Source: Candidatus Moraniibacteriota bacterium
GTDB taxonomy: Bacteria; Patescibacteriota; Minisyncoccia; Moranbacterales; UBA1568
Reading direction: 5' to 3'
NCBI GenBank assembly: GCA_016699975.1
Contig: CP064994.1
Location: 193,222-257,221 of the forward strand
Length of the DNA stretch: 64,000 nt
The notes beneath the pieces are model-generated. The model searched no databases. It was not told where the DNA came from and was given only the letters and a program-made list of their open reading frames with translations. The position numbers and the translations under genes were made by a program. The stretch's first letter is position 1. Every line of letters starts with the position of its first letter. Below are positions 26,355 to 45,593 of the stretch, in pieces.

Positions 26355-27815
26355 ATGAGACGCTCCCGAACCGCTCCCCGCGCTTCAAAGGGAAAGAAAC
26401 CGCGGAAGCCCGCTCGCTCCACTTCTTCCACCAAGAAAAAAAAGATGCCAAAAAAAGCTTTTTCTCTTCACCGTTCTTCCGAAAAGAAACGAACAACTCC
26501 TTCCGGAAAAGGTCGCAGCGCTCACGCCAAAAAAGCGATACGAAAACCATCCCGATCGGCAGCGAAAACGAAACGCCCTTCGAAATCTTCGTCACGCCCT
26601 CCTTCTCGAGAGAAGCAGTCCCGAGACACTCACAAGAAGCTCCCTGCTCCCGAGTCTCCCCTCGAGGTGAAGCCCGAAGAGAAAGAGATACGAAGGGTGA
26701 ATGCGTTCGAAGAACTTCTCTTTCGTGGTCGACAGCGAGGCTTTGTTACGGAAGACGAAATTATTCATATTTTGCCGGACATCGAGCATGATCTCGAGAA
26801 TCTTGAAAATCTCTATGAGAAATTTGAGACGAGCGGCGTGAAAGTGGTCGACTCGAGCGATATGCTGAAGCTTGAGACCGACAAGATTGGAGAGGAATTT
26901 TCTGGAAAGAAAAAGAACGCCAAGAAGAAAGAAAAGGAAACATCAATTCTTGGTGGTCCTGAAAAAACCGAGGAAGAAGCGGGTGATTCCGCTGACCTGG
27001 TGCAAATGTATCTGCGGGAAATTGGGCGCGTCCCTCTTATTTCGGGACAAGAGGAAGTACGACTGGCAAAGCAGATCGAAGCAGGAGATGCCTCTTCCAA
27101 GCAGCGCCTTACCGAAGCGAACCTGAGACTTGTGGTCTCGATCGCCAAAAAATATGTGGGACGGTCTCACAATCTTTCGCTGCTCGATTTGGTGCAGGAA
27201 GGAAATATCGGACTCTTTCGCGCCGTTGAAAAATTTGATTTTCGGAAGGGATTCAAGTTCTCGACTTACGCAACGTGGTGGATTCGCCAGGCAATTACGC
27301 GCGCACTTGCCGATCAATCGCGCACGATTCGCATTCCTGTTCACATGGTCGAAACGATTAATAAATATAGCCAAGTGACACGTCGTCTCGTTCAAGAGCT
27401 TGGCAGAGAGCCGCTTCCCGAGGAAATTGCCGTTGAGATGGGAGTCGAAGTTGAAAAGATTCGTCACATCCAAAAGATTTCCCAAGAAACAGTTTCTCTT
27501 GAGACGAGTGTGGGTTCCGATGACGACGAAAGCGTGCTTGGCGATTTTATTGAGGATACGGAGACGGTCATGCCGCATCAGGCGGCTGCGCGAAAATTGC
27601 TTTCCTCGCATATTGCAGAAGTGCTGGATGAGCTTTCGCCACGTGAGCAAAAGATTCTGAAGATCCGCTTCGGTCTCGAAGACGGAGTGGTTCATACGCT
27701 CGAAGAGGTGGGGCAGGAATTTGGCGTGACTCGCGAGCGTATTCGCCAGATCGAAGCGAAGGCGCTCGAGAAAATTCGCGAGCACGATATCGTAAAGAAA
27801 CTGAAAGATTATTGA
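26355..27815 (+). CDS. rpoD: RNA polymerase sigma-70 factor with about 110 aa of Lys/Arg/Ser-rich N-terminal extension; the start codon is uncertain
   Basis: Region 1.2 [11 protein letters not shown]; region 2 [33 protein letters not shown]...[10 protein letters not shown]; region 4 [20 protein letters not shown]. Confidence 0.9.
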
Positions 27816-27830
27816 AAGAGGCACTTAGGA

Positions 27831-28349
27831 GTGTCGAGGGAATCCGCTTTGCCTATGCCGCACATCCACACCAAACCGGGACAGATTGATTTCATCGCGG
27901 AAGTTTTTTGTGTCTACCAGGATAGGGTTTTGTTTCGTTTTCATGAGAAAGCGCGCCTCTGGATCGCGCCTGGCGGACACATTGAGCTCCATGAAACGCC
28001 GGAAGAAGCAGCTATCCGCGAAGTAAAAGAAGAAACTGGTTTGGACGTCACTCTGTTTTCTGGAAAGAAAGAAACAAGCGAGCACGAACCTGTTGGGACG
28101 AACTTGCTTGGAGATTGCCGAGAGCTTCTGGTGCCTGCTTTTCTGAATGTTCACGCAATAAATGCTGAGCATCGGCATATAAGCCTGGTCTACTTTGGCA
28201 CGGTCATAACCGACCACATCATTCAACCCGAGAATCATGAGAAGGCAGAGTGTCGCTGGCTCACTCGAGAACAAGTTCAGAGTGACACTGCCATTACGCC
28301 TCTCATGAAAAAGTACGCTCTCGTTGCACTTGAGACCTTGTCTCATTGA
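27831..28349 (+). CDS. NUDIX hydrolase
   Basis: Canonical Nudix box GGHIELHETPEEAAIREVKEETGLDV. Confidence 0.85.
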   Translation: MSRESALPMPHIHTKPGQIDFIAEVFCVYQDRVLFRFHEKARLWIAPGGHIELHETPEEAAIREVKEETGLDVTLFSGKKETSEHEPVGTNLLGDCRELLVPAFLNVHAINAEHRHISLVYFGTVITDHIIQPENHEKAECRWLTREQVQSDTAITPLMKKYALVALETLSH

Positions 28350-28402
28350 GAGAGTGCCTAGTTCCTTTGTAATGTGCCCTTTAAAGGGCGAGGAGAAGAG
28401 AA

Positions 28403-28651
28403 ATGTGTCTTGCGGTCCCAGTCTTGATCGTAGAGCTTCTGGAAAACGAAGAAGCAATAGTTGACATGGGAGGTGTTCGGAAAAAGATTTCTACCGCACT
28501 TCTGGATGGAGTAGCGGTGGGAGAGTACGTAATCGTCCATGTCGGCTACGCACTCAGCCGAATTGATCCCGAAGAAGCTAAAAAAACGCTTCGGCTCATG
28601 CAGAAAGGAGCAGTGAACGACTCTCTTTCCGAGTTCGAATCAGCGGCGTGA
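28403..28651 (+). CDS. hypC: HypC/HybG-family [NiFe]-hydrogenase maturation chaperone (orphan)
   Basis: N-terminal MCLAVP signature with Cys2, ~80 aa, beta-barrel-like pattern. Confidence 0.7.
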   Translation: MCLAVPVLIVELLENEEAIVDMGGVRKKISTALLDGVAVGEYVIVHVGYALSRIDPEEAKKTLRLMQKGAVNDSLSEFESAA

Positions 28652-28929: not shown

Positions 28930-29001
28930 TCCGGCGTAGCTCAGCGGTAGAGCGAGGGACTGTTAATCCCCAGGTCGCAGGTTCGAATCCTGCCGCCGGA
29001 G
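28930..29001 (+). tRNA. tRNA-Asn (anticodon GTT)
   Basis: Acceptor TCCGGCG/CGCCGGA, D-arm GCTC/GAGC, anticodon loop CTGTTAA, T-arm GCAGGTTCGAATCCTGC, G73. Confidence 0.85.
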
Positions 29002-29115
29002 CATCATAGGACTCTGAGCATATTCTGCCCAAAGTTTTGTTTTATCAGAGCCAAAACCGAGAGGTTCTAGGTGAAACCGTCTTTTTATTTTATATAAGCC
29101 ACTAATAATAAAAAA

Positions 29116-31475: not shown

Positions 31476-32561
31476 GGTGAGTTCAAGAATTTAATGCCCC
31501 TTTTCCAGTACCCTGGCAAAAACTTCATTCGGCGTCAAATAGTTAAGCGCTTTCCTCGGTCGATTGTTGAGTTTGTCCTGAACTGACCGAACTTCTTTTT
31601 GGGAAATTTTATCAAACGGGCATTTCTTCGGAAAATACTCTCGTAACAATCCATTCAAGTTTTCCACACCTCCTTTCTGCCAACTTTTGTAGGTATCGCA
31701 GAAGTAGGAAGGAAGAGAAAGTTTTGTTTCGTTTCTCCGTGCAAAACATTCTCCGTTCCATTATCTCTCGTAATACTTCTCCTCAATTGCTGCGGAAGCC
31801 GAGAGAAATGTCCCTGTATCGCTCGTTCGCTTTCGACCGCTGTTTTGTTTGGAACTTTCTTTAATCGGCATAGCTTCATTTTTCGCTCGTACTGTACCGA
31901 GAGTACTGACTTCTGTTTTGAGAATATCACGGAATCGGTTTCCCAGTCTCCAAAGTGTGTACGCTTGGTAATGACCGCGGGTCTTTCGTGAATGGGTATT
32001 CTATCCGGAATCGTCTCTTTTCGCGGTTTTCGAGAGAACTTTGGTCGTCTCCGCTTCTGTTTTCGTCGCAGATGTTTGTACCATCCGCCGACCCTTCCTT
32101 CTCCGCGGTAAATGTAATCATAGATGGATTCGTAACTTATCGAGGTATCCGTACACGAGGAAAGATTTTTCGGAGGAGATGTTTTCAACCGGCCGGCTAT
32201 CTGCTCCGGTGAATGTCCCTTCAGGAGTTCGCTTTCGACAAACTTTTTCAGTTTCTCGTTTTGCCATTTTCCAGTTTTCTTTTGTTGGTATTTTTCTTTC
32301 GTCTTTCCGCATACGCTTCAGCTCGGATGGCAACATAGGGAAGGTGCGGACTCGAATTTCTTCGTATCTCTCGCTTGATGACGGAGTAATCTCTTCCAAG
32401 TTTCTCCGCGATCCATGTTTTCTTTTTCTTCATGCGGAGAAAGCTTTCGATTCGCTCTCGTTCAAAGAAGGTTATGGACGTTCCTTTTGGCATATTCATA
32501 GCGTTTTTGGAAGTTAACGCCGGAGTATACCAGAAAAGGGGCTTCGGGGTTTGAATTCACC
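31476..32561 (-). mobile_element. IS30-family insertion sequence, copy 2 (inverted, 1086 bp); no target duplication; transposase degraded
   Basis: Near-identical to copy 1 with the same terminal repeats; the fragments (ORFs 32248..32499, 32118..32399, 31655..32188) carry HTH MPKGTSITFFERERIESF...REIRRN and the core ...GDWETDSVIF...SITRDNGTEN; flanks gag / gtg do not match. Confidence 0.85.
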
Positions 32562-33614
32562 GTGATTTATTTACCATCATTTAAAAAGCCTGTAACAATC
32601 AAGCCAGTAGCTCTAAATGAACTTGGAGAACAGCTAAGTATTTCTATTCCAGATGTGAGGGTGCCAAAGATTGAATTAGAAGAAAAAGAGCAAGAAAAGA
32701 TTGTAAACGATACGATTAAGTTTGTGTTTGGTACCTCACCTAAAGATGCTCTATCTAAAAGTGAATTTGAGAAGAGGTGTTTGATTTTTGCAAGGCATAT
32801 CGGAGAAAAATGGGAAGAGATACTGACAAGTTCTCATCATCCTATCGAGGAAAAACTTCCTGAAGTTATAGCAAAGATGGAAGCGGAGAGTTTTCGACTA
32901 CTGGTTCTATCTGGAGTTTTAGCGATCTATGGTACCGAGGAGCAAATAAAAGTGTTTGTAGAAACTCTTTCAGAGGTTTTGAAGTTAGCAAAAGGTAAAT
33001 CAGGGATTGTTGCAATTATTGCGGTTCCTGAGGTTATTGTTCTTTTGACGATATATATATTTACCTTGCTCGCATTAGCAACTCGAGACTTTAGTCGGTT
33101 AAAGGTATTTACCAATACCAGAGTCTATGGTTGGGTATACGATGGTGAGCCACCAAAAATCCTAGCCCTGAATCACGTTCACTACACCAGCGCATTAACC
33201 GGACATGCCGATAAAGTTGCGGACTTTGTTAGATCTAGACTTGAATCTATGAAGTGGTTAAAGTCTCTACACCCAAGACTGGAGAATATTCAAGATGTCC
33301 AAATACAAGCCAGTTTTCTTCTTAGTATGCTTATGCGCCACAATGATATTAGGACTTGGCCTGATTTTGGAAGATGGTACGCTCAAAGAATCACCTCTAT
33401 CGTAGAAAGGATAAAATATGATGATCAATATGTTAAACAAATAGCCAGTCTTTTTGATGTTCAATCCAAGGATTTGAGGTTGAAATTTTCGGAGTATCTT
33501 ACCGACTTTCGAAAGGCTGGGATGGCTCAGTATCACTGGGAATCCATCAGTCAGAAAGCACTCTTTACACCCGAGGAACTTACAAAGATGAAAGAGGAGA
33601 ACTTAGGAGATTAA
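32562..33614 (+). CDS. Hypothetical protein (350 aa, AT-rich), probably 5'-truncated by IS30 copy 2
   Basis: The ORF opens exactly at the IS boundary; first ATG is about 107 codons in; internal TM segment; no recognised domain. Confidence 0.45.
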   Translation: MIYLPSFKKPVTIKPVALNELGEQLSISIPDVRVPKIELEEKEQEKIVNDTIKFVFGTSPKDALSKSEFEKRCLIFARHIGEKWEEILTSSHHPIEEKLPEVIAKMEAESFRLLVLSGVLAIYGTEEQIKVFVETLSEVLKLAKGKSGIVAIIAVPEVIVLLTIYIFTLLALATRDFSRLKVFTNTRVYGWVYDGEPPKILALNHVHYTSALTGHADKVADFVRSRLESMKWLKSLHPRLENIQDVQIQASFLLSMLMRHNDIRTWPDFGRWYAQRITSIVERIKYDDQYVKQIASLFDVQSKDLRLKFSEYLTDFRKAGMAQYHWESISQKALFTPEELTKMKEENLGD

Positions 33615-33909
33615 GACATAATTTATGTGGTCTTTGGATTTTACTTTTGGAAAAACGAGCTAAAATTGAAACAAAAAATCGGTTAGGTAGGCGTCTAAAC
33701 TAGTCTAATTTCATGGACAACGCTTTCGTTTTTGGAGATGGAGGGGTAATTACTGGAGAAGATTGTTGGGCGAGTGAGAGGAAATAGTGAGGGATTTTAA
33801 CCGCGAGGATTTTGGGGCGACCCTTGCATAATATCAAGCTCCATGTTATCGTCCGCTGTCTGGTTCCTTGACAATTCATGTTCAACAATTCACCTATCGG
33901 AGGTGCAAA

Positions 33910-34741
33910 GTGGCTACTGTAGAAAAGAGTATTCGTCCCATGATATTCAGTGCTCCGGCTATTGGGGAGCGTGAAACGGTTTTTCCCTTGGCTCGAGAGC
34001 TGGTTCGTATTCAAGTTCCGGAAGCACTGATCAAAGATATCCTCGAAGCCTGCGATGGTCAGAGAACTTTGGATATGGTGCTGGAATTGCTTGAATCTAA
34101 GTGGGATCGCGATACATTAGAGAGCTTCTTGCGGCACTTGCACGAGAAAGGGGTGCTGTATGATAGCTCAAACTTGAGCGGTTTCGTTTGGCCGTTCGTT
34201 TCAAATCCGAGTCACTTCTCAAAAGCGGTGACTGATCTTCAGGTAGCTGAGATGGTTGAGCGAGCGTGCTTGAGGCAACGGAATCTTCCATCAAATATGT
34301 TTTTCACGGTGAAGGAGTATTATCCTTTCCAACGATTGGTTTCCAATCGGAAATCGGAACGATCCTTTTCAGGGAAAGTGATTAGCATGGAGCGTGTTGT
34401 TCAAATGCTGTGGGCGGGATATGGAGTTATTGCCGAATCTCAATCAGGAGTGGGCTTTGACCGTCATACCGTTCCGTCGGCGGGAGCATTGTATCCGTGG
34501 CGTGGTGATTGTGAATGGGTCGTTTAGTGTAGGGGAAGAGAAATATGGCAACAGGTCGCTCCTCTATGTTCCGCTTGAAGCGGGGCATGTCGCGCAGAAC
34601 ATTCTTTTGGAAGCGACAGAGTGCGGTGTTGCGACGGTGGAGATTGGCGGATTTCTCGAAGAGCCGATGCGAGACGCATTACGATTGCCGACGGAATTCG
34701 TTCCGTTGACCACCGTGGTGTTTGGCGATTCTGCCGGTGGT
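33910..34741 (+). CDS. SagB-type dehydrogenase (McbC-like nitroreductase-fold, TOMM 'B' protein), frame changed near 34508-34515
   Basis: SERSFSGKVIS...TVPSAGALYP hallmark motif, followed in the next frame by VVIVNGSFSVGEEKYGNRSLLYVPLEAGHVAQNILLEA...GGFLEEP; GGAGG RBS then GTG at 33910. Confidence 0.8.
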
Positions 34742-35970
34742 GGGGATCATGGACATCACCTGCCATGCGGATTCGAAGTTTGGTGGGCATATCCAAAAGC
34801 AAATGGATACGTGTTGCCGTTCAATCTCGTGTTTGCTCGATTGGCAAAAGCTTCCGGTGGAAGCGAAGAGTGGTCATGCGGGCGTTCTTCCGATCCTTTC
34901 GTGGCGTATGAAAAAGCGACTGCGGAAGTGCGGGAGTGGGCGGCATGCAGTCTTCCGCATAACCTTGTGAAGTCGAATATCGGATCGCTTGCGAGTGCGG
35001 TAGCGCCGGACAGCATAGTGGCGTTTCATCCCGATCAGTACGCTTCGCCGAGTTTTCCGTTCTTTCCCTTGAACAAGAAGGGGTCTACGAATGGAAGGAA
35101 GCCACAGACGTGGTAACGTGTGAAATACATTTCATTCTGGCTGACTGTATCTACTTCCCCTACTATCCGGAGTATCCGCGCTGTGCAAGTGCGAATTCTT
35201 CCGGAGCGGCTGCGTATCCCACAAGGATTGGCGCAGTTCGGCGCGGGGTGTTGGAGTTGATCGAGCGAGATGCCTTCATGATCGTGTGGCTCAACCGTTT
35301 GGTGATGCCAACGATCGCTGGTGGTAGTTTTCCGGATGATGTTCGGTGTCGTATTCGCAACTTGGAAGAAGCGGGTTTTGAAGTGATCATCAAGGATGCG
35401 ACACTTGATTTGGCTCCGGTTGTGTTGGTATTCGCGCAGAGCGAAGACTTGCATTACACAACGTGCTCCGCTTGCTGTTCTTTCAATGTTGACAGGGCGC
35501 TGAATCATGCTTTACTGGAGGTCGAAGCGGCGGTGTATTGTCGTTTGGCATTCGGCTCTTCAGAGCCGATGCTTCCCGAAGATGTGCGGATGACGCAGGA
35601 TCACGGGAAGCTGTACGAGCAAGAAGCTTTTTTCCGACAAGCGGATTTTCTGAAAGAGTCTCGGCTCTTGAAAGACTTGAGTGAAGTCGGCGAGGGCGCT
35701 TGCTTTCACTGGGAAATGCTGTTGGTGCGTATCGCGGAACAAGGAAGGAACGTTCTGGTGGTCGATCTTGAAAATCCGCATGTGGACGGTATTCAGTCAA
35801 ATCTGTTCATAGTGAAAACTTTTGTGACAGGATTGGTGCCGATAAGCTTCGGGTACAGAGAAGAGCCGTGCGGGATGCAAAGAATCTACGAAGTCCCTGT
35901 GACTTTTGGATTCCGTTCCGACCCGATTCGTTACGACGAACTCAACAGGTTCCCGCATCTTTACACATAG
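34742..35970 (+). CDS. YcaO cyclodehydratase domain protein (TOMM 'D' protein), frame changed near 35045-35075; contiguous with the SagB reading frame with no intervening stop
   Basis: N-part SCGRSSDPFVAYEKATAEVREWAACS; core SSGAAAYPTRIGAVRRGVLELIERDAFMIVWLNRL (YcaO ExxERD motif). Confidence 0.8.
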
Positions 35971-35993
35971 CTTGCGAAAGGGGGTGATGATCC

Positions 35994-36158
35994 ATGCAAG
36001 CAGGAAAAGCCGCGAAGGGGCAATCCTTCGAATGGTGCGTCACGGTTGAACCGCGGCGTTCGGGTAGAGGGCACGAAGCACTCTCGAGCAAAGGGAGCAG
36101 CAGCTCCGGTTCGTGTCAGCGTTCCAACAGCTGTCGGGCAAGCGCGATTCAACGCTAA
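35994..36158 (+). CDS. Candidate TOMM/RiPP precursor peptide (54 aa): MQAGKAAKGQSFEWCVTVEPRRSGRGHEALSSKGSSSSGSCQRSNSCRASAIQR
   Basis: Not in the ORF track because it is under 60 aa; RBS aaggggg 9 nt upstream; Ser/Cys/Gly-rich C-terminal core; immediately downstream of YcaO and followed by two strong hairpins. Confidence 0.5.
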   Translation: MQAGKAAKGQSFEWCVTVEPRRSGRGHEALSSKGSSSSGSCQRSNSCRASAIQR

Positions 36159-36174
36159 TCGCAACGGTTCGGCA

Positions 36175-36232
36175 GACTAAAGCGCTTTAGTCTCAACAAG
36201 GGGTCTTGGTCATGATGATCACGACCCCCCTT
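36175..36232. terminator. Tandem hairpins (20-bp perfect palindrome agactaaagcgctttagtct, then ggggtc...gacccc + T-run) between the convergent precursor and peptidase genes
   Basis: Read directly from the sequence. Confidence 0.7.
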
Positions 36233-37078
36233 TCATTTCCCAAATTCTGATTTTTCGTAAATTTTTTTTGGTGTGAGCTGGACGATATCGTTCCATGATG
36301 TGTCAGGATGTCGCTTTCGATACGCTTCAACCATTTGGTAGCCGATCGCATAGCCTGCCCAGAGAGGGTATTCTTTTCCTTCCAAGAAGACAGGATAGTA
36401 CATCTTTGTATTGCGAAACCGCTTCTTGAATTTTTCATACCACACGAGTGCTTCTTTGAACGGGAGGGCTTGCGAGGGCATATGTGCCTTCACGCCGAAG
36501 AGAAAGGAAACAAAACTTTCCGCTACTCCCTCAAAGACGAGGTCGTCCAAAAGATTTTTTCTCTCGTAGTGGTTATCCATTACCGTGTGCATGAACTCGT
36601 GACAGATCGTTTCGGTGAGCGCTTCTTTCCATCGCTCAGTTTCCTGCGGTGAAACATACAAGAGCAGGGTATTTTTGTAAGGAGTATAGCCCGAGACGCC
36701 ACCCATTTTGTCTTTGACGAAGGTGCTAAAGGTTGGGAAAAGAAATATATTGGTTGGTGAGGTGGAAACGTTTTTGTGACAAAGTTGGAGAGCTTCTTTT
36801 ATGGTGCGTAGCAATTCTGATTCCGAAATACTGAACGCTTGATGTTGAGTATTGGCATTCTCGAAGTCGGGAATATTATACGTGAGATTATCGTGGAGGT
36901 GTTTCTTTTTGGTGAATCCGGCGTAACCGATTGCTTTTGAGTAGGGAACTTCTTTGACGAAATTTCCAATGAGAGTCTCGTTATCGAACGCGGGATCGTA
37001 TTTTGTGAAAAGTTGAAGCGTTCCAATGTTACCCGATTTTCCCTTTTTCTGTATGTCAGTAATGGTGTGTGCTTGCAT
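36233..37078 (-). CDS. Putative zinc metallopeptidase (HExxH; DUF2268-like)
   Basis: TICHEFMHTV motif; 281 aa; AT-rich. Confidence 0.6.
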   Translation of the reverse strand: MQAHTITDIQKKGKSGNIGTLQLFTKYDPAFDNETLIGNFVKEVPYSKAIGYAGFTKKKHLHDNLTYNIPDFENANTQHQAFSISESELLRTIKEALQLCHKNVSTSPTNIFLFPTFSTFVKDKMGGVSGYTPYKNTLLLYVSPQETERWKEALTETICHEFMHTVMDNHYERKNLLDDLVFEGVAESFVSFLFGVKAHMPSQALPFKEALVWYEKFKKRFRNTKMYYPVFLEGKEYPLWAGYAIGYQMVEAYRKRHPDTSWNDIVQLTPKKIYEKSEFGK

Positions 37079-37182
37079 AGGGTTTTGGCAATAGATGGTT
37101 TATCCTTATAATTTCTTGAGGAAAGACTAGCACTTTTTCGGAGAAGTGTATATCGAAGAAGTCTTCTTCGGAACACATTTTT

Positions 37183-38865
37183 CTAGAAAGCAAAGATGAG
37201 AAGCTTACTTATTTGAGCCAAAGTTCCTTCCGGATACGGTATCGCTTGCTCCCATTCAAAGGTTCGGAAGCTGTCCCGCCAAGCGAGCACTAGTGAAGAA
37301 CTGGAGTATGAAAGCTCCAGTTTTTCTTTATCTGAAGGGTTTTTCAGAGGTTCGAACCTTTGAGAAATAGAATTTACCTGGAATGAGAACCCTTGAAGCT
37401 TTAAAATCGGATTTGTGGCTTCTATCAAGAACTTTCTTTCTTTGATAAAGAGGTTCGAACCTAGGCCATTTATGATGAGTTTTTTGGTTTCCTCATTTCC
37501 TTCCTGAAATCTATCTTTAATATCTTCAGCAATACTTAAAGTTTTCTCTAATCGATCAATCCATGTTTCTGAGGCCTTCTCAGAATCAGCTAGTATCTTT
37601 TTGAGTCTATCCCTGTCTTGTAAGATGGCTTCTCGCTTAGGCGTAAAAACCGCTTCAGGGATCTCGTTACTTAGTCGGAGCTCCAGTAACCTATCCAGTT
37701 TATCTTCCACGCTCTTTAAGGCTCGTTTCTGGCTTTCTAGAAGTCTTTGCTGCTCTTCAATGCTTGATGCCTCTTTGCTCCTAAAATAGCGTACAGCCCA
37801 CTCCTTAAAGCTTGCAGGGATGCTTATGGATTCAAGTAAACTGCCAATTTGGCTTTCTAGTTCCTTTTCCTCAATTACCTTTTTAGGGCAATCGGGATTC
37901 TTCTTCCCCGTACAGTGATAGTAAGTATAAAAGTGAACATTGCCATTCTTATTTCTCTTCACTTTATTTTCAGCCGTGATCATGGCGCCACAGCTACCGC
38001 ATTGAATAGTTCCTCTATAGGTGAAATCGTATTTATCTGGCCGAGTAGTGCCTCTCTTTCCTAGTATCGTTTGAATCCTTAAGAACTCTGCTTTGGTGAT
38101 TATGGGAACATGCTTCCCTGAATACCAGTTCCCGCTTCCTAGCGGATACTCAAACTCTCCGTAATAAAAAGGATTATTCAACATTGCATACCATGTACTA
38201 TTAGCGATAGGACTTCCGTTTCGATTTCTCAATCCCCATTCTTTCGTGGCTAATTGATATGCCTTCATTGGTGTGTATTCACCAGAAGCTATCCCCTTAA
38301 ACGCTTTCCTGATCACATCGAAACGTTCAGGGTCGGTAAGCACCTCCTTGTCTCCTTTGAGTTTCATCGGATTAGCGGCATACCCATAAGGGGCTACTCC
38401 AGGGAACCAGCCTCGCTCTGCCTTAGCCCGAAGTCCTCTTTTGGTATCTGTACTTAAGTCTCGGATGAACTGGTTAGCCATTCCCAGCTCCACATTCATA
38501 AGGAGTACATTGTCAGAAGGGTAGTAATCTCGGCCTTGGGTCTTTATGTTTGTGATAAAGCCCTCCTGCAACAAGTGGCTAATCATTCCGCCATCAAGGG
38601 CGTTACGAGTGAGACGGTTAATTTTCCAACAAAGAATACCATCGGCCTCTCTTTTTTGGATTTTGCTAATCATTTGATTGAAGACAGGTCTTCCAATCGC
38701 TTTTGCAGACATGGATTCAGTAAGTACCTCAATCACGTTTAGATCATACTGAGTAGCTATCTTTTGAAGCTCATGAACCTGAGATTCAATAGAGGCCATT
38801 TGCCTATCCTCGGATTCGCTCGACTTACGAGCGTAAAGAATGTATTTATTTGCTTTCTCATACAT
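37183..38865 (-). CDS. Large serine recombinase (phage-integrase type)
   Basis: N-terminal resolvase domain YARKSSESEDRQMASIESQ...R; recombinase domain; zinc ribbon CGSCGAM...YYHC; coiled-coil C-terminal region. Confidence 0.88.
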   Translation of the reverse strand: MYEKANKYILYARKSSESEDRQMASIESQVHELQKIATQYDLNVIEVLTESMSAKAIGRPVFNQMISKIQKREADGILCWKINRLTRNALDGGMISHLLQEGFITNIKTQGRDYYPSDNVLLMNVELGMANQFIRDLSTDTKRGLRAKAERGWFPGVAPYGYAANPMKLKGDKEVLTDPERFDVIRKAFKGIASGEYTPMKAYQLATKEWGLRNRNGSPIANSTWYAMLNNPFYYGEFEYPLGSGNWYSGKHVPIITKAEFLRIQTILGKRGTTRPDKYDFTYRGTIQCGSCGAMITAENKVKRNKNGNVHFYTYYHCTGKKNPDCPKKVIEEKELESQIGSLLESISIPASFKEWAVRYFRSKEASSIEEQQRLLESQKRALKSVEDKLDRLLELRLSNEIPEAVFTPKREAILQDRDRLKKILADSEKASETWIDRLEKTLSIAEDIKDRFQEGNEETKKLIINGLGSNLFIKERKFLIEATNPILKLQGFSFQVNSISQRFEPLKNPSDKEKLELSYSSSSLVLAWRDSFRTFEWEQAIPYPEGTLAQISKLLIFAF

Positions 38866-38923
38866 AAGCTAACCAATTATGTATTACAGATCCAGAATAA
38901 TCTTTTCAGTCAAAAACTGCTAT

Positions 38924-39430
38924 TTATTCAATCAGGCCTCTTTCTCTTCGGGATTTTAAGATCATCTCACCCAGCTTAGTAAAATCGAATGTATTAACTA
39001 GCTCCAGCTTCTTTTCCATTGGTTTAGGCTCAAAAATGCCTAATCTTTCCATAAAGCGGTCGTAATCATCATAGTCTCCCTCCTCAACCTTCTTTCTTCC
39101 AAGACGCATAGCCTCTAAAATTCCAAACCCATCTGCTTCTAAGACTGCATTATTCAAAAGTTGAAGTTTTTTGTAATTTTGAGAGCCAATTTTTGCGGCT
39201 GTTGCATAATCGTCTGTATCGTAAACAGCGAGGGCGCACCTTACTCGATTGCCAAAGTAGGCCTTATTCGATTTATCTAGAAAAAGGGATGTCCAAAGTT
39301 TAAATTTTTCAGATTGCGCCTGCATAAGTTTAATAGGGGAGATAGTTTTGGCTTGTTCCTTGATCTTTAAAAGTTCTCTCTTGGCCTCGTTCTGGTTCTT
39401 TACCCCGTCGATTTTTTTAGGATTAGACAT
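38924..39430 (-). CDS. Hypothetical protein
   Basis: 168-aa ORF co-oriented with the recombinase. Confidence 0.45.
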   Translation of the reverse strand: MSNPKKIDGVKNQNEAKRELLKIKEQAKTISPIKLMQAQSEKFKLWTSLFLDKSNKAYFGNRVRCALAVYDTDDYATAAKIGSQNYKKLQLLNNAVLEADGFGILEAMRLGRKKVEEGDYDDYDRFMERLGIFEPKPMEKKLELVNTFDFTKLGEMILKSRRERGLIE

Positions 39431-39767
39431 ATTAGTTAACTTCTCGGACTTTATAAGTTTCTCTAAGAAGATTTAAAAATTGCTCAGTATACCTGGCAGC
39501 CTCTACTTCTGATAGCTTCATTCCAAATTCCTTTAGGAATAAGGCCTGAATTTCTTCTATTTCTTTAGGTGTAAACATAGAACTGTAGGCACTTACCTAC
39601 AGTCTAGAGTTCTTTCTTTTAAGTTCAGAGCACATTATGTGTACTACATATCTTGCCGTTTTTTGGCTTCACGAGAGACAATTCTTCTAATTTCTCCCAT
39701 ATAGAACTTCTCATTAAAATACTTTTTTACCAACTCTCGAATTTCAACTTCTGGTAAATGACGGTTT

Positions 39768-40097
39768 TCATAAATAAATCTGTTTCGCTCCTGTTTTTTT
39801 TAAGTCTTTTTTCTTTGTCTTTCCAAGCTTTTCTTTTTTTGAATCCTTTTTATCCAATTTATCTTCAACCGTTTTCCAGTTAGCTTTTATAAAATCAACT
39901 ACGTCTCTCTGCGTGGCAAATGGACTAATGCGAATAATGACGGGGTAGTATTTATTTTCACCCTTTAAATGGTTGAAGAAAGATTCATTCGTTTTTTTAT
40001 TCCCTGGTTGGTAATCTTCCCATTCTTCTTCTGTGTCAATGATCTTACAAACTCCCTCACTGGCAAAAAGATAGACTGCGAACTCAATATCATACAA
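39768..40097 (-). CDS. Hypothetical protein
   Basis: 109-aa ORF; Lys-rich C-terminus. Confidence 0.4.
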   Translation of the reverse strand: MYDIEFAVYLFASEGVCKIIDTEEEWEDYQPGNKKTNESFFNHLKGENKYYPVIIRISPFATQRDVVDFIKANWKTVEDKLDKKDSKKEKLGKTKKKDLKKTGAKQIYL

Positions 40098-40163
40098 ATC
40101 GAATAGAGCAAATAACCGGAGAGTAATGCTAATACTTTCAAAGTTCCTTATGGGTATTCTCTC

Positions 40164-40496
40164 TTATATTGGCCGTATTCTGTCTCGGAATTCTTTAATA
40201 AGTGAGTAACCTTCAGTGGGAAGGTAAAAGGGATGCGCTAATATCTCCTTTAAAATCATTGATTCCAACTCTAATCCCTCTTCTGGTATATCGAAATTTT
40301 TTCTCAACAAGGAAATCTGCTTTAACACCTCTTCTTTAACAAGAAGATCATTAAGGAAATAAGCCGTTTTGAGTGCTGCCTGTGTAACCCTTATCCCTCT
40401 TTTTTGACAGTCCTGTATGTAGGGTTGGAGAAGCTCCCTTTGGCGCTTTCTCTTCTCGTGAGGTTCTAAGACAGCTTCTTTTCCTGATCTCTTCAT
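40164..40496 (-). CDS. Hypothetical protein
   Basis: 110-aa ORF. Confidence 0.4.
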   Translation of the reverse strand: MKRSGKEAVLEPHEKRKRQRELLQPYIQDCQKRGIRVTQAALKTAYFLNDLLVKEEVLKQISLLRKNFDIPEEGLELESMILKEILAHPFYLPTEGYSLIKEFRDRIRPI

Positions 40497-40561
40497 ACGC
40501 TTTTACCCTTAGTATGAGCCAAAGTTTGCCTTCAATAAAGCCCGGGGTTATCATTGATAAC

Positions 40562-40695
40562 GGTTAGCTACTACAAGGGTTTTTGCGGAGAAAGATGTCT
40601 TTGCATCTTTTTTCCTACTTGTTGCCCGAAAGGGGCGCCGACGCCGCAAGTAGGTTCCGCAAGGATCCCGAAAGTAGCTAACCAAGTCGGCGTCC
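40562..40695 (+). ncRNA. Candidate structured RNA or cis-regulatory element (nested inverted repeats, GNRA-type hairpin, terminator-like 3' end)
   Basis: 11-bp closing helix GGTTAGCTACT/AGTAGCTAACC; inner helices TGCGGA/TCCGCA and CCTACTTG/CAAGTAGG; gccc-gaaa-gggc hairpin; gggcgccgac can pair alternatively with gtcggcgtcc followed by tttttgttttg. Confidence 0.4.
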
Positions 40696-40730
40696 TTTTT
40701 GTTTTGATAATTTTTTAATATAAGCGATTT

Positions 40731-40979
40731 ATGGTCATCGTTGCTGCCGTTATAATTACAGCCGTAGTGGTTTCTCTTTGGAGTAAGTATGCTTACACAA
40801 AAGGGAACAAGAATACCTATGTGGCTTTTGAGGCTCTAATTAATGAACTGAATAACATGGCCAAAGAGAATGGACATGTAGATGTTTACAGTTATTGGGT
40901 AGAAACTAAAGGTAAAGAATATGCCGATAAAGCAAAAGAAAACTTAGATAGTACCCTCAAGTTTCTTAGGGAAGGATAG
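40731..40979 (+). CDS. Hypothetical small membrane protein
   Basis: 82-aa ORF with N-terminal TM. Confidence 0.4.
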   Translation: MVIVAAVIITAVVVSLWSKYAYTKGNKNTYVAFEALINELNNMAKENGHVDVYSYWVETKGKEYADKAKENLDSTLKFLREG

Positions 40980-40984
40980 TTTGT

Positions 40985-41170
40985 ATGATCTCTACAAACG
41001 AAGCTAGAAGTCTCCTACCGAATGGCGCCTCCTACTCCGATCAAGAAGTTGAGAAGATCCTTGAAGACCTTTATTTTCTAGGGAACCTTTCGTTGAAGGC
41101 GTACCTTGATGAGCGTTCTAGTTCTCACGAACTTTTATTAAAAAGCCTTCGAAATCCTCCTGCAAGTTAA
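40985..41170 (+). CDS. Hypothetical small protein
   Basis: 61-aa ORF with RBS. Confidence 0.3.
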   Translation: MISTNEARSLLPNGASYSDQEVEKILEDLYFLGNLSLKAYLDERSSSHELLLKSLRNPPAS

Positions 41171-44100
41171 ACTCGAATCTTTCGAAAACATGTATAAGTA
41201 TCCTTTCCATGAGGTAGTTTTCTTGATTTTTTTGGCTACCTTCTTTGCTAAGCCAATCAGGTGGATTTTGTAAGAACTTTTTCATTAGTTCTGATTCTGG
41301 AAGAAATTCTTGAACATTTATTTTAAAGATATCAATTTTAAGTGATTCACTGTCCGTAGCCTCTAAGGGAGAGTATTGAGTTAAGATCCCCAGCCTATTT
41401 TTATTGAGAACAAGAATATAGGAATCTCTTTTATTATCGTAAAGCTCGTAAACGGGTATATCCTTATCTTTAACCTTATAAAAGCCGTTTATTTCCTTAG
41501 GAAGACTGCCTTCAGCGATGTTTAAACGCCATTTAGGAGTGTATTTTTCATTCTGGTTTGCTTCAAAGAAGGATCTCCAGCTGGCATTATTTACTGCAAT
41601 AATAATTGCCTCACCAGTGGTGGAAATATCCGCTATTTTTTGATCCAAGTCAGCAGCACTTATGACTGCGGAGCGATCCTTAATTTTCTTTAACAGATCC
41701 GTGTTTTCTCCTATTACCATGTTCCTGCCAAACTCAAATCCTTCTTCCATTCCTAAAACATGAACGTGCCAGGATACGGAATCATCGAAGAAACCGGCTT
41801 TATCAAATAAAGTGTTTACTCCTAGACTTTTGAGATCACCTGAATATGGTTCGTTGCTCTTATCTTGAAACAGACTGTAGTGGCGGAGAATACTTCGAAG
41901 TTGATCATTATCGTAAAAATCTTTCACTACGCTTTTTTTAAAAATCGCTACCTTTTTCGGGGAAATTCTTAATCTTCTTTTTTTATCTATTTCTTCATTT
42001 TCTTGGCTTTCTTTAGCACGTACTAGAAGATCCTTGAAGCTATCTACTTTCTCTAATGCTTTCCCATCCAGTAAAAAGCTCCAGTTACTAGGATTGGCTT
42101 TCATGTCTTCTAGAGTACCCAATAAACTTCTTGTCCCTTCAGCAAGGTATGCCAAATCTCTACTGTGAGGCAGGTTAATGCCCGCTATTTCATCGGGAGT
42201 TTTCTCCTTTAAGATTTCTAATGAATATACTGCATAAAGCCTTTCAAGTTTTGAAAGAATATCAATCGTATGTGCTTCACCTTCTTCTTGTCCTTCCATT
42301 TCCCAGTTATCCCAGCCCCAGAAGCTTTCTACTGCAAAGTCATGAACAACGGAGAAGAGCTTAGTAAAATCATTAATTTCGCTAGGAAGTTTTCTTTTTA
42401 CTTCATCATAAAATTCTTTCACCTTTTCGTTATCTTTGTCTTGTTCTAACTCGTATAAAATCCAGCTAGCTACACCAAAGAACATCTCCTTTCTCTTTCC
42501 ATCAAGATAATCGTAAAGTTTCTCATCCTCATCAGAATCAGATCGGCCAGAATCCCGAATATCTTTGAATAACTTTGAGGTAACAAGCAGAAACTTTTGA
42601 AAGTTCAAAGTATCTCTATTGCTAAATGAAGCTTTTAATAAGCTTTGAAAAATCTTCAATATTTCCTCTGCAAAAAGTTTTATCTCTTCCTTTGAGTAGT
42701 TCTTATCTTCGAGCTTTTCTTCCAAAGGATGTCTTGATAGGTCATTGAGATATCTCCATATCCTGTCGAAAATGAAGGCTGCTCTCGTCTCATCATTTTT
42801 TCTTTTGGCCTCTATAGCAATGTGGTAAAAGCGTAGGGGATAATATGCAAACTCTTGAAATATTAGGTGGTCTTTATGGTCAATCGCCTCTTGAAGAAGC
42901 CGGATGGGTAAGTACATTACGTAGCGATTAATATCCTTACTTACAGAACTTAACCCATTTTCAATAACTTCGCTTATGTCTTTTGAGATCCAGGAAACTG
43001 ACTTAAAGCCCCCAAACGCTATTTCAAACCTCATATCGCTAGCTTGCTTTGCAGAAAATCCTCCTCCGTGCTGTTCCAAATAAGAGTAAAACTCCTTGAT
43101 TAACTCGATGTAGAAATCGGTGATTTCTCCCAACTCCTTAGTCTTCTGTTGCTGAATAAATTCATAACAACGAAGTTTAATCTCAGAAATCTCATTTTGG
43201 ATCTCATCATAGTCAGTGCTATTTCGTTTGATCACGAACAGCTTATTGGCCATTTCTGAGACTTTTGCTTTTTCTGACGGCGATTTAATTAAATCCTTGT
43301 GTATCCATAGGAGATTTCCTTCGCCTTTCTCAAGATATGATAAGTATCGTGGAACAATCCAGAAATAGGGATCTCTTCCTTTGTATTCCTCATCAGTGTT
43401 TGAAACCTCATCTGAGTTTTTGAGAAGAGCGCTGTAGTCTTCAGGTAATCTTTTCTGAAATCTTAAAAGAAAACTATTTAGCTTATTTAGTTTAAAATCG
43501 TAGAATGTACCAGTTTTAAGTGTTTTTATTGGAATAAATCTATTTTTATTCACAGGAGAAAAAGGGCTGACTTCAACTACCTTTTTGAACCTTTTAAGTT
43601 TTTTGTTGAGGACGCCATCTCCTATTAACTGGGTTACTTCGTTATCTAATAAATTAAGAAACCGGATCTTAATAGCATGTAAAAACTCCTTCCTTTCTTT
43701 TTTAAAGCTAAAATTATTCGAAAATAGGTTTAAAGTCTGAAATAGAGAGTAGATTGTTCCCGCAGCTATAAGCACCAAAGGAATAACCCCGAAGAAATTA
43801 ATGTTTCCCCACCAAATGTAGTACAGGAAGTAAAGAACCTCAGCTATTATTAAAAGTGGGAAAAATTTACTCCTTTTCAATAAAATTCTTCCCCTGTAAG
43901 GATTCTCGTTAGCTATCTCTTGGGCAATGAAAAATGCCAATCCAATTAAAACTGCGCCTATTCCTGCATGGATCGTGATTAAGTTTTGAAAATGGTTTTC
44001 TTCTCGTAATATCTCGGAGAGGTTGCTGAATTTGTTTTCGATCCAATAAGATAGATTTTCACAGCATATATTATTGAACTGATGAAGAATTCCATTAATC

Positions 44101-44369
44101 CAATTGGAATGGGAGAGCACAAAGAAAAAGGCCAATACCAAGACAACTGCAAGAATTTCCCACCCTGATAACCATAAAAGTGTAAGCTTTGAGTTTATAA
44201 GTTCCTTATGATCTTTTCTTAACTTTTTCTCTTCTTTGACTAAGCTAAGTAAGGAAGGTTCTCTTTCCCAAGAAAAGACTTTTAGGATCGCTTTTAAAAC
44301 TTGTACTGTCTTCAATTCTTCTTTCATTGTCGTGTAGTCAAACAAGGGGTAATCAGGGCATTTTCTCAA
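41118..44369 (-). CDS. Large hypothetical protein (1083 aa) with an N-terminal 4-5 TM region and a long soluble domain
   Basis: Uninterrupted 3.25-kb ORF in the AT-rich island; no motif I can assign. Confidence 0.7.
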   Translation of the reverse strand: MRKCPDYPLFDYTTMKEELKTVQVLKAILKVFSWEREPSLLSLVKEEKKLRKDHKELINSKLTLLWLSGWEILAVVLVLAFFFVLSHSNWINGILHQFNNICCENLSYWIENKFSNLSEILREENHFQNLITIHAGIGAVLIGLAFFIAQEIANENPYRGRILLKRSKFFPLLIIAEVLYFLYYIWWGNINFFGVIPLVLIAAGTIYSLFQTLNLFSNNFSFKKERKEFLHAIKIRFLNLLDNEVTQLIGDGVLNKKLKRFKKVVEVSPFSPVNKNRFIPIKTLKTGTFYDFKLNKLNSFLLRFQKRLPEDYSALLKNSDEVSNTDEEYKGRDPYFWIVPRYLSYLEKGEGNLLWIHKDLIKSPSEKAKVSEMANKLFVIKRNSTDYDEIQNEISEIKLRCYEFIQQQKTKELGEITDFYIELIKEFYSYLEQHGGGFSAKQASDMRFEIAFGGFKSVSWISKDISEVIENGLSSVSKDINRYVMYLPIRLLQEAIDHKDHLIFQEFAYYPLRFYHIAIEAKRKNDETRAAFIFDRIWRYLNDLSRHPLEEKLEDKNYSKEEIKLFAEEILKIFQSLLKASFSNRDTLNFQKFLLVTSKLFKDIRDSGRSDSDEDEKLYDYLDGKRKEMFFGVASWILYELEQDKDNEKVKEFYDEVKRKLPSEINDFTKLFSVVHDFAVESFWGWDNWEMEGQEEGEAHTIDILSKLERLYAVYSLEILKEKTPDEIAGINLPHSRDLAYLAEGTRSLLGTLEDMKANPSNWSFLLDGKALEKVDSFKDLLVRAKESQENEEIDKKRRLRISPKKVAIFKKSVVKDFYDNDQLRSILRHYSLFQDKSNEPYSGDLKSLGVNTLFDKAGFFDDSVSWHVHVLGMEEGFEFGRNMVIGENTDLLKKIKDRSAVISAADLDQKIADISTTGEAIIIAVNNASWRSFFEANQNEKYTPKWRLNIAEGSLPKEINGFYKVKDKDIPVYELYDNKRDSYILVLNKNRLGILTQYSPLEATDSESLKIDIFKINVQEFLPESELMKKFLQNPPDWLSKEGSQKNQENYLMERILIHVFERFEFNLQEDFEGFLIKVREN

Positions 44370-44455
44370 AATGAGGATCTATTTACAAGGTACACCCTAA
44401 TTAGGTGAAAATACCATTAACTCTGGGGAGACAGAGGCTATTTTCCTTTTCAGAC

Positions 44456-44548
44456 AGGTTCGAACTTCCTCCAGTCCGCGGAGCAGGCAAAACGAGGCTG
44501 AACAGCGCCTTGTTTTTTGTTACCCCTTGTCGGAGTTCGAACCTCTTA
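44456..44548 (+). repeat. Hairpin repeat family, copy B
   Basis: GGTTCGAACttcctccagtccgcGGAGCAGgcAAAACgAGGCtgaacagcGCCTTGTTTTttgttaccccttgtcggaGTTCGAACctc. Confidence 0.8.
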
Positions 44549-44635
44549 ATTAAATTGTATGATACACAATAATAAATTATTGACAAACGATAAGTAATAG
44601 AATAGGATAAAGATGTAAATATTAGAGGATTTTTT

Positions 44636-45121
44636 ATGAAAAAAAGTTCAATACTATTTCTCCAGGGGGTGATTATACTAATTGGTATCGTCAGTTTCGT
44701 TCTGATGCTTTGGGAGCCTCATCTGGAGGGAAGGAACGTAAATGCTACGCTATTTGAAATCTATTTTAATGATCCTTTCTTAGCCTATGCATATGCTGCC
44801 TCAATTGCTTTTTTTGTAGCACTTTATCAAGCATTCAAATTATTAGGATATGCAGATAAAAACAAAATATTTTCCCAATCTGCTGTGAAGTCTTTAAGAA
44901 ATATAAAATATTGCGCTTTGATCCTGGTTGCATTTGTTATCGGAGCCGAAGGTTACTTATTTCTTGTTGTACGAAAAGTGGAAGAAGATATTGCAGGGGG
45001 CGTTATGATGGGTCTGGTTATGGTCTTTGTCTCTGTAGTTGTAGCCACGGCAGCAGCGGTATTTGAAAAACTTCTGCAGAGTGCTGTCGATATGAAGTCA
45101 GAGAATGAATTAACTATATAG
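44636..45121 (+). CDS. DUF2975-like membrane protein
   Basis: 4 TM helices; lies upstream of and overlaps a YozG-like HTH gene, the conserved DUF2975-HTH pairing. Confidence 0.55.
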   Translation: MKKSSILFLQGVIILIGIVSFVLMLWEPHLEGRNVNATLFEIYFNDPFLAYAYAASIAFFVALYQAFKLLGYADKNKIFSQSAVKSLRNIKYCALILVAFVIGAEGYLFLVVRKVEEDIAGGVMMGLVMVFVSVVVATAAAVFEKLLQSAVDMKSENELTI

Positions 45122-45126
45122 CGTGT

Positions 45127-45330
45127 ATGTCTATCGTAATCAACATTGACGTAATGCTCGCTAGAAGAAAAATGAGTGTAACTGAGCTTGCAGAAAGAGT
45201 GGGGATAACCATCGCCAATATTTCTGTGTTGAAAAATGGCAAGGCTCGTGCTATTCGATTCTCGACACTGGAAGCAATTTGCGCTGCTTTAGACTGTCAG
45301 CCTGGAGATATTTTGGAGTACAAGAAATAA
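45127..45330 (+). CDS. XRE-family (Cro/C1-type, YozG-like) HTH transcriptional regulator
   Basis: MSVTELAERVGITIANISVLKNGKARAIRFSTLEAICAALDCQPGDIL. Confidence 0.8.
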   Translation: MSIVINIDVMLARRKMSVTELAERVGITIANISVLKNGKARAIRFSTLEAICAALDCQPGDILEYKK

Positions 45331-45391
45331 TTGATCGATAAAGCAGAAAGATGATTAAGATTTACGAAGAAAGAGGAATTAAGCAGCTTCA

Positions 45392-45516
45392 GAGGTTCGA
45401 ACACTTTCCATTTATCCCTCCACCCCTCTATAGGACAAGGTTCGAACTTCATCCAACAGGTGGAGCAGCTAAAACAAGGCTTGAGCAGGCCTTGTTTTTG
45501 TATATCCTCTATTGGA
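45392..45516 (+). repeat. Hairpin repeat family, copy C (two GGTTCGAAC motifs plus the hairpin)
   Basis: aGGTTCGAACac...cctccacccctctataggacaaGGTTCGAACttcatccaacaggtGGAGCAGctAAAACAAGGCttgagcagGCCTTGTTTTtgtatatcctctattggag. Confidence 0.8.
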
Positions 45517-45593
45517 GTTTGGATTTGGTATAGACAAAACTTTTAAATATGCGATTATTATAAATCGTTCTTTTCCATCCGTACCTATATTTA

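Follow-up and report, generated by a model that had tools for sequence, protein, structure and literature searches.

In the microcin B17 (McbBCD) and streptolysin S (SagBCD) systems, both of the linear azol(in)e-containing peptide (LAP)/thiazole/oxazole-modified microcin (TOMM) type, a YcaO protein (D) is found together with a SagB/McbC-type flavin mononucleotide (FMN) dehydrogenase (B) bearing RxSxR, PSAG and Lys-Tyr motifs, next to a small precursor with a Ser/Cys-rich core and with a leader peptidase nearby. We analysed a locus of this kind within a 64,000-nucleotide (nt) stretch of contig CP064994.1 from a Candidatus Moraniibacteriota bacterium, referred to below as the window, in which both enzymes are encoded by one gene, now split over three reading-frame segments. 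All of the features just listed recur at this locus, but B and D here belong to one polypeptide rather than to a multi-subunit complex, neither an E1-like C protein (McbB/SagC) nor an Ocin-ThiF-like F protein is present in the cassette, and the leader is apparently recognised through an N-terminal domain of the dehydrogenase, a recognition element (RRE) for peptides that are made on ribosomes and modified after translation (RiPPs).

Partial precedents exist for this domain order. ThcOx/PatG-oxidase (PDB 5LQ4) also joins an N-terminal RRE-like domain to a SagB-type FMN oxidase, but it has two RRE-like domains and no YcaO fusion, the cyanobactin heterocyclase PatD/LynD being a separate E1-like and YcaO protein. 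The C-D heterocyclases LynD, TruD and PatD have an N-terminal RRE and a C-terminal YcaO domain, and are the best structural matches for both of these domains in the present enzyme. Their middle domain, however, is E1-like and non-catalytic, whereas here it is a catalytic FMN dehydrogenase, and for this reason the fused enzyme should yield azoles rather than azolines. The same phylogenetic setting is known from the Candidate Phyla Radiation (CPR), in which 110 LAP clusters were described bioinformatically in 93 genomes (Sharrar et al. 2020, PMC7298704). Those clusters likewise contain a YcaO, a nitroreductase, a peptidase and an adjacent Ser/Cys-rich precursor, but with YcaO and nitroreductase as separate neighbours rather than fused to each other and to an RRE. 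C-D fusions are listed by Cox et al. 2015, but B-D fusions are absent. In the literature searched, the fused family was not described beyond a brief mention that fusion of the oxidase with YcaO occurs.

Evidence for a disrupted fusion gene

We conclude that the locus probably represents a disabled gene for an azole synthetase that is by nature fused into one polypeptide, and from which a 167-nt deletion has here removed the dehydrogenase core. An initial annotation, made from the sequence alone, had read SagB and YcaO as one gene with two opposite frame changes, and had offered either sequencing errors, possibly hiding a stop between two genes, or decay into pseudogenes. The open reading frame (ORF) list and a frame-by-frame translation bear out the frame 1, frame 2 and frame 1 segments that it described: three forward-strand ORFs, at 33868-34527 (frame 1), 34394-35116 (frame 2) and 35110-35970 (frame 1), contain respectively the SagB N-part, the SagB C-part with a linker and the YcaO N-part, and the YcaO core. 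Translation starts at GTG 33910, which follows a GGAGG and agrees with the GenBank start of QQS21113.1, and the first part runs to ...PSAGALYP at about 34498 before a stop at 34525-34527. Frame 2, open over 34394-35116, encodes VVIVNGSFSVGEEKYGN...GGF...VVFGDSAGGGDHGHH and then the YcaO N-part. It crosses a Gly/His linker at 34727-34759, and no stop interrupts it across VVFGDSAGGGDHGHHLPCGFEV or in the sequence resembling YcaO that follows, until frame 1 is resumed from about 35069 to the TAG. The Pfam Nitroreductase profile was matched over 2-40 in the first ORF (E 1.5e-4) and over 94-166 in the second (E 2.4e-7), and the YcaO profile over 96-324 in the third (E 1e-29).

The conceptual translation was searched against 5.8 billion proteins with a cut-off of E <= 1e-3; homologous proteins and related loci are cited below by P and L numbers. 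The search recovered 306 proteins, and both domains (PF00881 and PF02624) lie in one protein in 119 of the 120 best, most of which are 720-780 amino acids (aa) long. The one-gene dehydrogenase-YcaO fusion proposed at first is thus supported. The architecture, which had been called uncommon, is so in the characterised literature, yet it makes up a sizeable family in Patescibacteria metagenomes. The closest homolog, P0001 (741 aa), is 88-92% identical at the amino-acid level to the three window pieces and gives three tblastn high-scoring segment pairs (frame 1, aa 1-197; frame 2, aa 252-445; frame 1, aa 437-741). The closest clade includes at least nine different intact variants of 741-742 aa (P0001, P0002, P0249, P0254 and P0262-P0266), which continue in frame across a Gly/His linker that is identical or closely similar (GDSAGGGDHGHH in the closest homologs), with no interdomain stop. 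From these comparisons the SagB-YcaO fusion is genuine.

Among species-representative genomes, fused copies were found in members of the Moraniibacteriota, Saccharibacteria, Paceibacterota and Uhrbacteria, and additionally in a few metagenome-assembled genomes (MAGs) labelled Bdellovibrionales or Gammaproteobacteria. Candidate fusions in cultured bacteria were rejected, since the matches in Rothia, Planomonospora, Nitrospina, Pontibacter and other distant taxa proved to be separate YcaO and SagB ORFs.

The lesions were defined by blastn and MAFFT against four relatives (L001, L003, L004 and L006), and exactly three indels distinguish the window: an in-frame gain of 3 nt at 34318-34320 (an extra Tyr), a loss of 167 nt after 34498, and a loss of 1 nt at 35069-35070. 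The first frame change therefore lies about 10 nt upstream of the 34508-34515 interval given initially, and is a large deletion rather than a small indel, while the second falls inside the proposed interval of 35045-35075. At the deletion junction the window reads ...GTATCCGT|GGCGTGGTG..., and about 56 codons are gone, equivalent to aa ~198-253 of P0001. Homologs with as little as 40% identity retain this block. It holds Y215, which is invariant in an alignment of 50 members, and in the AlphaFold2 (AF2) model of P0001 it contributes three strands (196-202, 213-218 and 226-231) and two short helices to the nitroreductase fold. A complete nitroreductase fold is accordingly found in intact relatives and not in the window, where 56 residues between PSAG and KY are gone. 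The second lesion, 570 nt downstream of the deletion, changes the cccTTTgaa of relatives to cccTTgaa. The two frame changes, treated initially as equivalent, differ in kind and probably in origin.

That the net shift is zero holds as arithmetic (167 + 1 = 168 = 56 x 3) but not as a rescue. Frame 1 closes nine codons beyond the deletion, and several more frame-1 stops lie within the frame-2 stretch, so the zero sum is a coincidence. Nor would correcting the frame restore an enzyme, because the dehydrogenase core with Y215 is deleted. The product of roughly 690 aa expected if both shifts were errors is close to the 686 codons that remain in the window copy, whereas a repaired product would have 741-742 aa, as in the intact relatives. 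The earlier pseudogene alternative was essentially right: relative to intact orthologs the gene has lost 167 nt and 1 nt, and the resulting premature stop and frame disruptions mark it as a probable pseudogene.

Several other explanations of the frame changes were considered and rejected. Programmed frameshifting would require a slippery site, and no X_XXY_YYZ motif occurs at 35060-35072; a 167-nt gap is in any case impossible as a ribosomal event. An alternative genetic code with UGA recoding is at odds with the ORFs of >1000 aa that read well under table 11. A search for microhomology at the deletion ends returned just a GCG trinucleotide with an offset, which is uninformative.

Predicted domains of the fused enzyme

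The domain organisation was examined in P0001, for which the AF2 model has a pLDDT of 90.5 and a pTM of 0.87. Residues 1-85 are predicted to be an RRE with a putative role in leader binding. This region is modelled as a beta3-alpha3 winged helix (strands 10-12, 22-26 and 31-35; helices 38-47, 54-61 and 67-79), and a separate model of residues 1-100 reached a pLDDT of 81.7. The top 14 PDB matches of the N-domain in Foldseek are all RiPP leader-binding RRE or scaffold domains, including those of LynD, TruD, PbtF, McbB, ThcOx and TbiB1, with weak E-values of 4e-3 to 0.3 and TM-scores of ~0.6-0.7. For the PbtF RRE (8t19) the values were TMq 0.64, TMt 0.72 and a root-mean-square deviation of 2.2.

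Residues ~105-330 match SagB/McbC/BmdC-type FMN oxidases, with BmdC, McbC and ThcOx among the Foldseek matches, and are followed by a disordered linker (residues 334-338, pLDDT <50). Residues ~340-741 form the YcaO domain, which matches LynD (E 5e-23), TruD, MusD and archaeal YcaO. Across 50 members the dehydrogenase columns R146, S148, R150, P188-G191 and the Lys-Tyr motif are invariant, and the corresponding motifs are visible in the window as NRKSERSF, PSAGALYP and EEKYGNR. The acidic YcaO residues E394, E397, E504, E507, E592 and E594 likewise show no variation across the family, and the window translation retains all six, with the window YcaO domain split between two frames. P0001 scores below the cut-offs of the curated NCBIfam models, with 155.5 bits against TIGR03604 (SagD, cut-off 219.25) and 52 bits against SagB (cut-off 78), and on these scores it is related to the curated SagD subfamily but stands outside it.

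A proline-rich C-terminal motif (PxPxP-like) is described as typical of azoline-forming YcaO proteins. The consensus C-terminus of the present family is FPHPYT, in which P737 is invariant and P739 is conserved in >= 90% of members; the window copy, L006 and P0254 end in PHLYT.

Precursor peptide, protease and predicted pathway

We found an intact gene for a 54-aa peptide, MQAGKAAKGQSFEWCVTVEPRRSGRGHEALSSKGSSSSGSCQRSNSCRASAIQR, directly downstream of the fused gene and preceded by a strong Shine-Dalgarno sequence (aagggggtga, 35978-35987). A small ORF of 54-75 or 43 aa lies 3' of the fused gene in 10/10 relatives checked there (L001, L003 and L006-L013). In the clade whose enzymes are about 44% identical, the counterpart has 43 aa and the form MKK..KRFIWSVK.KPR...MKSSDSSGQSAQSKD, and the counterparts have in common a leader motif F.W.V...PR and a Ser-rich core. 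Compared with L007, the window ORF has synonymous differences in 20 codons and non-synonymous ones in 15, and the amino-acid sequence of the core is maintained. A structured RNA in place of this ORF was considered and rejected: Rfam, run on 33500-37300, gave just a chance small RNA match (E 0.73) and no family at the precursor. Between the convergent precursor and protease genes, two stem-loops would be a likely bidirectional terminator, and consensus scans for promoters and terminators gave nothing above the shuffled background.

The DUF2268 HExxH metalloprotease beyond the stem-loops is presumed to be the leader peptidase of the cassette. L001, L003, L006-L009 and L011-L013 all have it downstream of the fused gene, with identities as low as 32%, and the precursor ORF adjoins the fused gene down to 44% identity. 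Together the fused enzyme, precursor and protease form a compact three-gene RiPP (azole-peptide) cassette. The adjacent precursor with a Cys/Ser/Thr-rich core is as expected of LAP/TOMM clusters, and in the conserved cassette the fused RRE stands where an E1-like C or Ocin-ThiF-like F protein would otherwise be expected. The RRE, the precursor gene and the conserved protease had all been missed in the initial annotation. A 350-aa ORF upstream was rejected as a cassette member, being the truncated C-terminus of a Peptidase_C14 protein.

In an intact cassette, the RRE would dock the leader of the adjacent precursor peptide, the YcaO domain would use ATP to cyclodehydrate Ser and Cys of the Ser-rich core to azolines, the fused FMN dehydrogenase would oxidise these to azoles, and the DUF2268 Zn-protease would remove the leader. 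It is quite possible, and we suggest it tentatively, that the intact members are self-sufficient RRE/FMN dehydrogenase/YcaO azole synthetases that need no E1-like or ThiF-like partner and turn a conserved core dominated by Ser (SSKGSSSSGS... or SSDSSGQS...) into a linear peptide rich in oxazoles, in a cassette on tRNA-Asn islands of Patescibacteria that is exchanged between lineages and repeatedly inactivated or swapped for a graspetide cassette while the protease is kept. In the window the precursor and protease genes are still intact, and the locus therefore looks like a recently disabled RiPP cluster on a decaying island. The missing T downstream of the deletion happens to return the YcaO core to its original frame without rescuing it, and may be a Nanopore homopolymer error. 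The coordinates of the features are given in Table 1.

Table 1. Features of the fused-gene locus and its surroundings in the window
Feature	Position	Strand	Evidence
Disrupted RRE/SagB-type FMN dehydrogenase/YcaO cyclodehydratase gene	33910..35970	+	ORFs, Pfam, tblastn, homologs
GenBank coding sequences on the fused gene: QQS21113.1 'hypothetical', QQS21114.1 'nitroreductase family protein', QQS21115.1 'YcaO-like family protein'			
Predicted RRE, ~aa 1-85, intact in window	33910..34164	+	AF2 models, Foldseek
Post-RRE connecting region, then N-part of SagB-type dehydrogenase; RxSxR (NRKSERSF), PSAG	34165..34498	+	Pfam, invariant columns
167-nt deletion junction, frame 1 to 2	34498..34499	+	blastn, MAFFT against L001, L003, L004, L006
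Frame-2 stretch: dehydrogenase C-part (EEKYGNR, GGF), linker, YcaO N-part (ATAEVREWAAC, with E394 and E397)	34499..35068	+	Pfam, translation, tblastn, invariant columns
1-nt deletion, frame 2 to 1	35069..35070	+	MAFFT alignment
YcaO core and C-terminus (SSGAAA, ELIERD, PHLYT), TAG 35968-35970	35071..35970	+	Pfam
Precursor peptide gene, 54 aa, intact, unannotated in GenBank	35994..36158	+	Conserved position, coding-type substitutions
Two stem-loops between convergent precursor and protease genes	36174..36228	.	-25.7 kcal/mol, z = -2.96
DUF2268 HExxH metalloprotease QQS21116.1, intact, convergent	36233..37078	-	Pfam DUF2268, E 1.3e-20
tRNA-Asn, likely left island boundary	28930..29002	+	ARAGORN
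Large serine integrase adjoining cassette	37183..38865	-	NCBIfam; PHROG phrog_95, E 1.5e-64

Origin of the two lesions

How far frame changes in this assembly can be trusted was assessed from its sequencing record and from other genes in the window. CP064994 is a circular MAG (Hirt_18-Q3-R61-65_MAXAC.378_cln; Patescibacteria; Moranbacterales; UBA1568) with a coverage of 5.4x Illumina and 10.9x Nanopore, assembled with CANU and polished with Racon and medaka and then with one Illumina Racon round (Singleton et al. 2021, PMC8012365). An independent Logan contig from the same strain, L062, is 99.88% identical to the window over 5.9 kb with three indels. In each case the window lacks a single base of an A or T homopolymer (runs of A5, T6 and A7; ~17118, 17606 and 17648). 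All three lie in TerC/DUF475 (window 17036-18218), an intact 309-aa gene in L062. By this same-strain comparison, 1-nt homopolymer deletions are technical in at least the TerC cases. The contigs from the same strain, L062 and L063, end short of the fused gene. This strain is present at 99.6-99.9% identity in the read sets SRR15021097 and SRR32934939. ClpP (496-1100) is spread over three successive frames, with one shift in an A6-7 run near 852 and a second ~25 nt later at an extra A in a short AA stretch, and both shifts are probably technical. The gene holA, for the delta subunit of DNA polymerase III (62381-63371), falls into two parts because the frame shifts near 62885, where there is an A5 run. 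In the phosphoglycerate mutase gene iPGM (2106-3731, reverse strand) a single in-frame TGA occurs at 3168-3170 (IVA*ANM), where recoding is unlikely as the rest of the window is normal under table 11. In ClpP, holA and TerC alike the frame is lost within A or T runs or next to them, and with three of these shifts proven technical, frame changes in the CP064994 assembly call for caution.

Against this background we regard the 167-nt deletion as very likely biological. For the 1-nt deletion a biological origin is a real possibility but a doubtful one, and the missing T is possibly a Nanopore homopolymer under-call, although its T3 run makes it a weaker error candidate than the verified errors in runs of 6-8 nt. 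The alternative that fares best after our preferred reading is that both lesions are real, the second being either a further decay event or the footprint of a mobile element that sits there in relatives. This we consider possible, if rather doubtful. In its favour are the shortness of the T run (3 nt, against 6-8 nt at the three proven indels) and the end of a repeated element (...GTTTCATGATGTGGGGTGTATAAA) that in L054, L056 and L057, from three samples, is joined 1-2 nt from the site of the window's 1-nt deletion. The element end lies at 1-30 in L054, 1-30 in L056 and 1-54 in L057, and also at 3610-3663 in L058, where the flank differs. Single-base indels in the window are demonstrably unreliable, however, the window sub-lineage has TTTGAA as its ancestral state and lacks the TTTAAA of the L003-type insertion site, and the coincidence of the sites was noticed after the fact.

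A second possibility is that both lesions are assembly or base-calling artefacts, and that the organism carries an intact fused gene of 741-742 aa. The low coverage with a single Illumina polishing round, the homopolymer under-calls proven against the same-strain contig, the disrupted ClpP, holA and TerC genes and the in-frame TGA of iPGM would all fit with this, as would the lack of a non-synonymous excess on the window branch. Even so we think it unlikely, as the clean loss of 167 bases with both sides aligned is unlike the 1-nt homopolymer errors proven in the window, the surroundings of the gene show real structural decay (insertion sequence (IS) insertions and a truncated C14 peptidase), and several independent, real inactivations are seen in short-read assemblies of close relatives.

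It could also be that the deletion is real and that translation from an internal start still turns the downstream part into a separate YcaO protein of ~516-525 aa, in which case the 1-nt shift would have to be an error. Once a single T is put back, frame 2 is indeed open from 34394 to the natural stop and all YcaO motifs are present. A convincing ribosome-binding site is nevertheless absent before the candidate starts, the product would have a dehydrogenase stub attached and no RRE, hence no leader recognition, and no such protein is on record, all of which makes this very improbable. The suggestion that SagB and YcaO are two genes whose separating stop is masked by errors has a negligible chance of being correct and is refuted by the intact close relatives, all of which read through the linker in one frame, as does frame 2 of the window; nothing supports it, and separate adjacent YcaO and SagB genes occur only in distant families (Rothia, Planomonospora, Nitrospina).

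Some observations weigh against our preferred reading of an inactivated azole synthetase gene. The assembly is of low coverage and demonstrably error-prone, and both lesions are known from the assembled sequence. A degenerate pattern for the deletion junction was not found in JGI metagenomes, and exact look-ups of the truncated 205-aa product matched the NCBI record only; exact look-ups of hypothetical repaired products, too, found none beyond the NCBI record. Private substitutions on the window branch number 30 synonymous to 9 non-synonymous, a ratio of 0.30, compared with 0.32 for each of the intact L001 and L006. Relaxed selection is thus not seen, a pattern compatible with very recent inactivation as well as with an artefact. 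Finally, we infer azole chemistry, leader binding by the RRE and proteolysis by DUF2268 from homology and gene context.

Genomic island setting and inactivation in relatives

The cassette is likely to lie on a tRNA-Asn integrative island. Synteny with L004 and L059 stops at this tRNA gene, and in L059 this tRNA has a serine recombinase as its immediate neighbour. Within the island are a DDE_Tnp_4 transposase and an IS30-like transposase, the latter broken into three ORFs (31491-32499, reverse strand). Abutting the IS30-like remnant, a gene for a caspase-like Peptidase_C14 protein (32562-33614, forward strand) retains only the last 350 of 592 aa, whereas near-identical Logan contigs (98% identity) encode all 592 aa. 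A 3' remnant of the large serine integrase (its last 33 codons) lies beside DUF2268 in L001 (4595-4690), L054 (2141-2239) and L055, and related integrases are found 8-10 kb from the cassette in L006 and L009.

The cassette is 87-91% identical to that of relatives in which rpoD is 78-80% identical, and with its left flank (26679-28551 and 33602-37288, compared with L004 and L059) the identity is 87-98% at the same rpoD identity. The higher identity in the cassette than in rpoD suggests that Moranbacterales have recently exchanged the island or the cassette horizontally.

Beyond the cassette, the stretch from 38000 to 46000 has a G+C content of 36-40%, compared with 45-51% elsewhere, and contains large ORFs without a Pfam or PHROG match, such as one of 1083 aa at 41118-44369 on the reverse strand. 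This stretch is presumably cargo of the integrative island.

Copies of the fused gene have been lost independently in close relatives in several ways, seen in short-read assemblies. L003 (3619-5844) and P0252 carry a nonsense codon at position 71 (Glu to stop) and Y267N in the invariant Lys-Tyr motif, and the private non-synonymous/synonymous ratio of L003 is 0.50, above that of the window and the intact copies. L003 is thus an independently decaying copy; recoding of its stop was rejected, as its relatives have a conserved Glu at that position. In L004 and L005 the fused gene is cut at residue 589 by an IS630-type element. In L054, L056 and L057 it is lost through insertion of the repeated element described above. 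In L059-L061 the first 20 codons of the fused gene are kept as a 42-aa ORF and the rest is replaced by a graspetide cassette (L059 12075-15184), comprising an ATP-grasp MvdD-type ligase, a 56-aa peptide ending in TDTYLKWTEDHDA and a 320-aa protein without an assigned function. The graspetide cassette lies between the same flanks as in the window, and the DUF2268 protease is retained.

Conclusions

In conclusion, the three GenBank coding sequences QQS21113.1-QQS21115.1 are probably pieces of one dead gene, for which a pseudogene annotation is due. The interest of the locus lies mainly in the intact family, in the unannotated precursor and in repeated loss and cassette replacement. The intact family would represent a minimal azole-peptide system of one enzyme, one peptide and one protease in ultra-small Patescibacteria, and it bears on how YcaO proteins may function without an E1-like partner. 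Potentially, a single chain for leader recognition, cyclisation and oxidation would also suit peptide engineering. The repeated, independent loss of the fused gene and the swapping of cassettes in these bacteria suggest that selection on the product is episodic.

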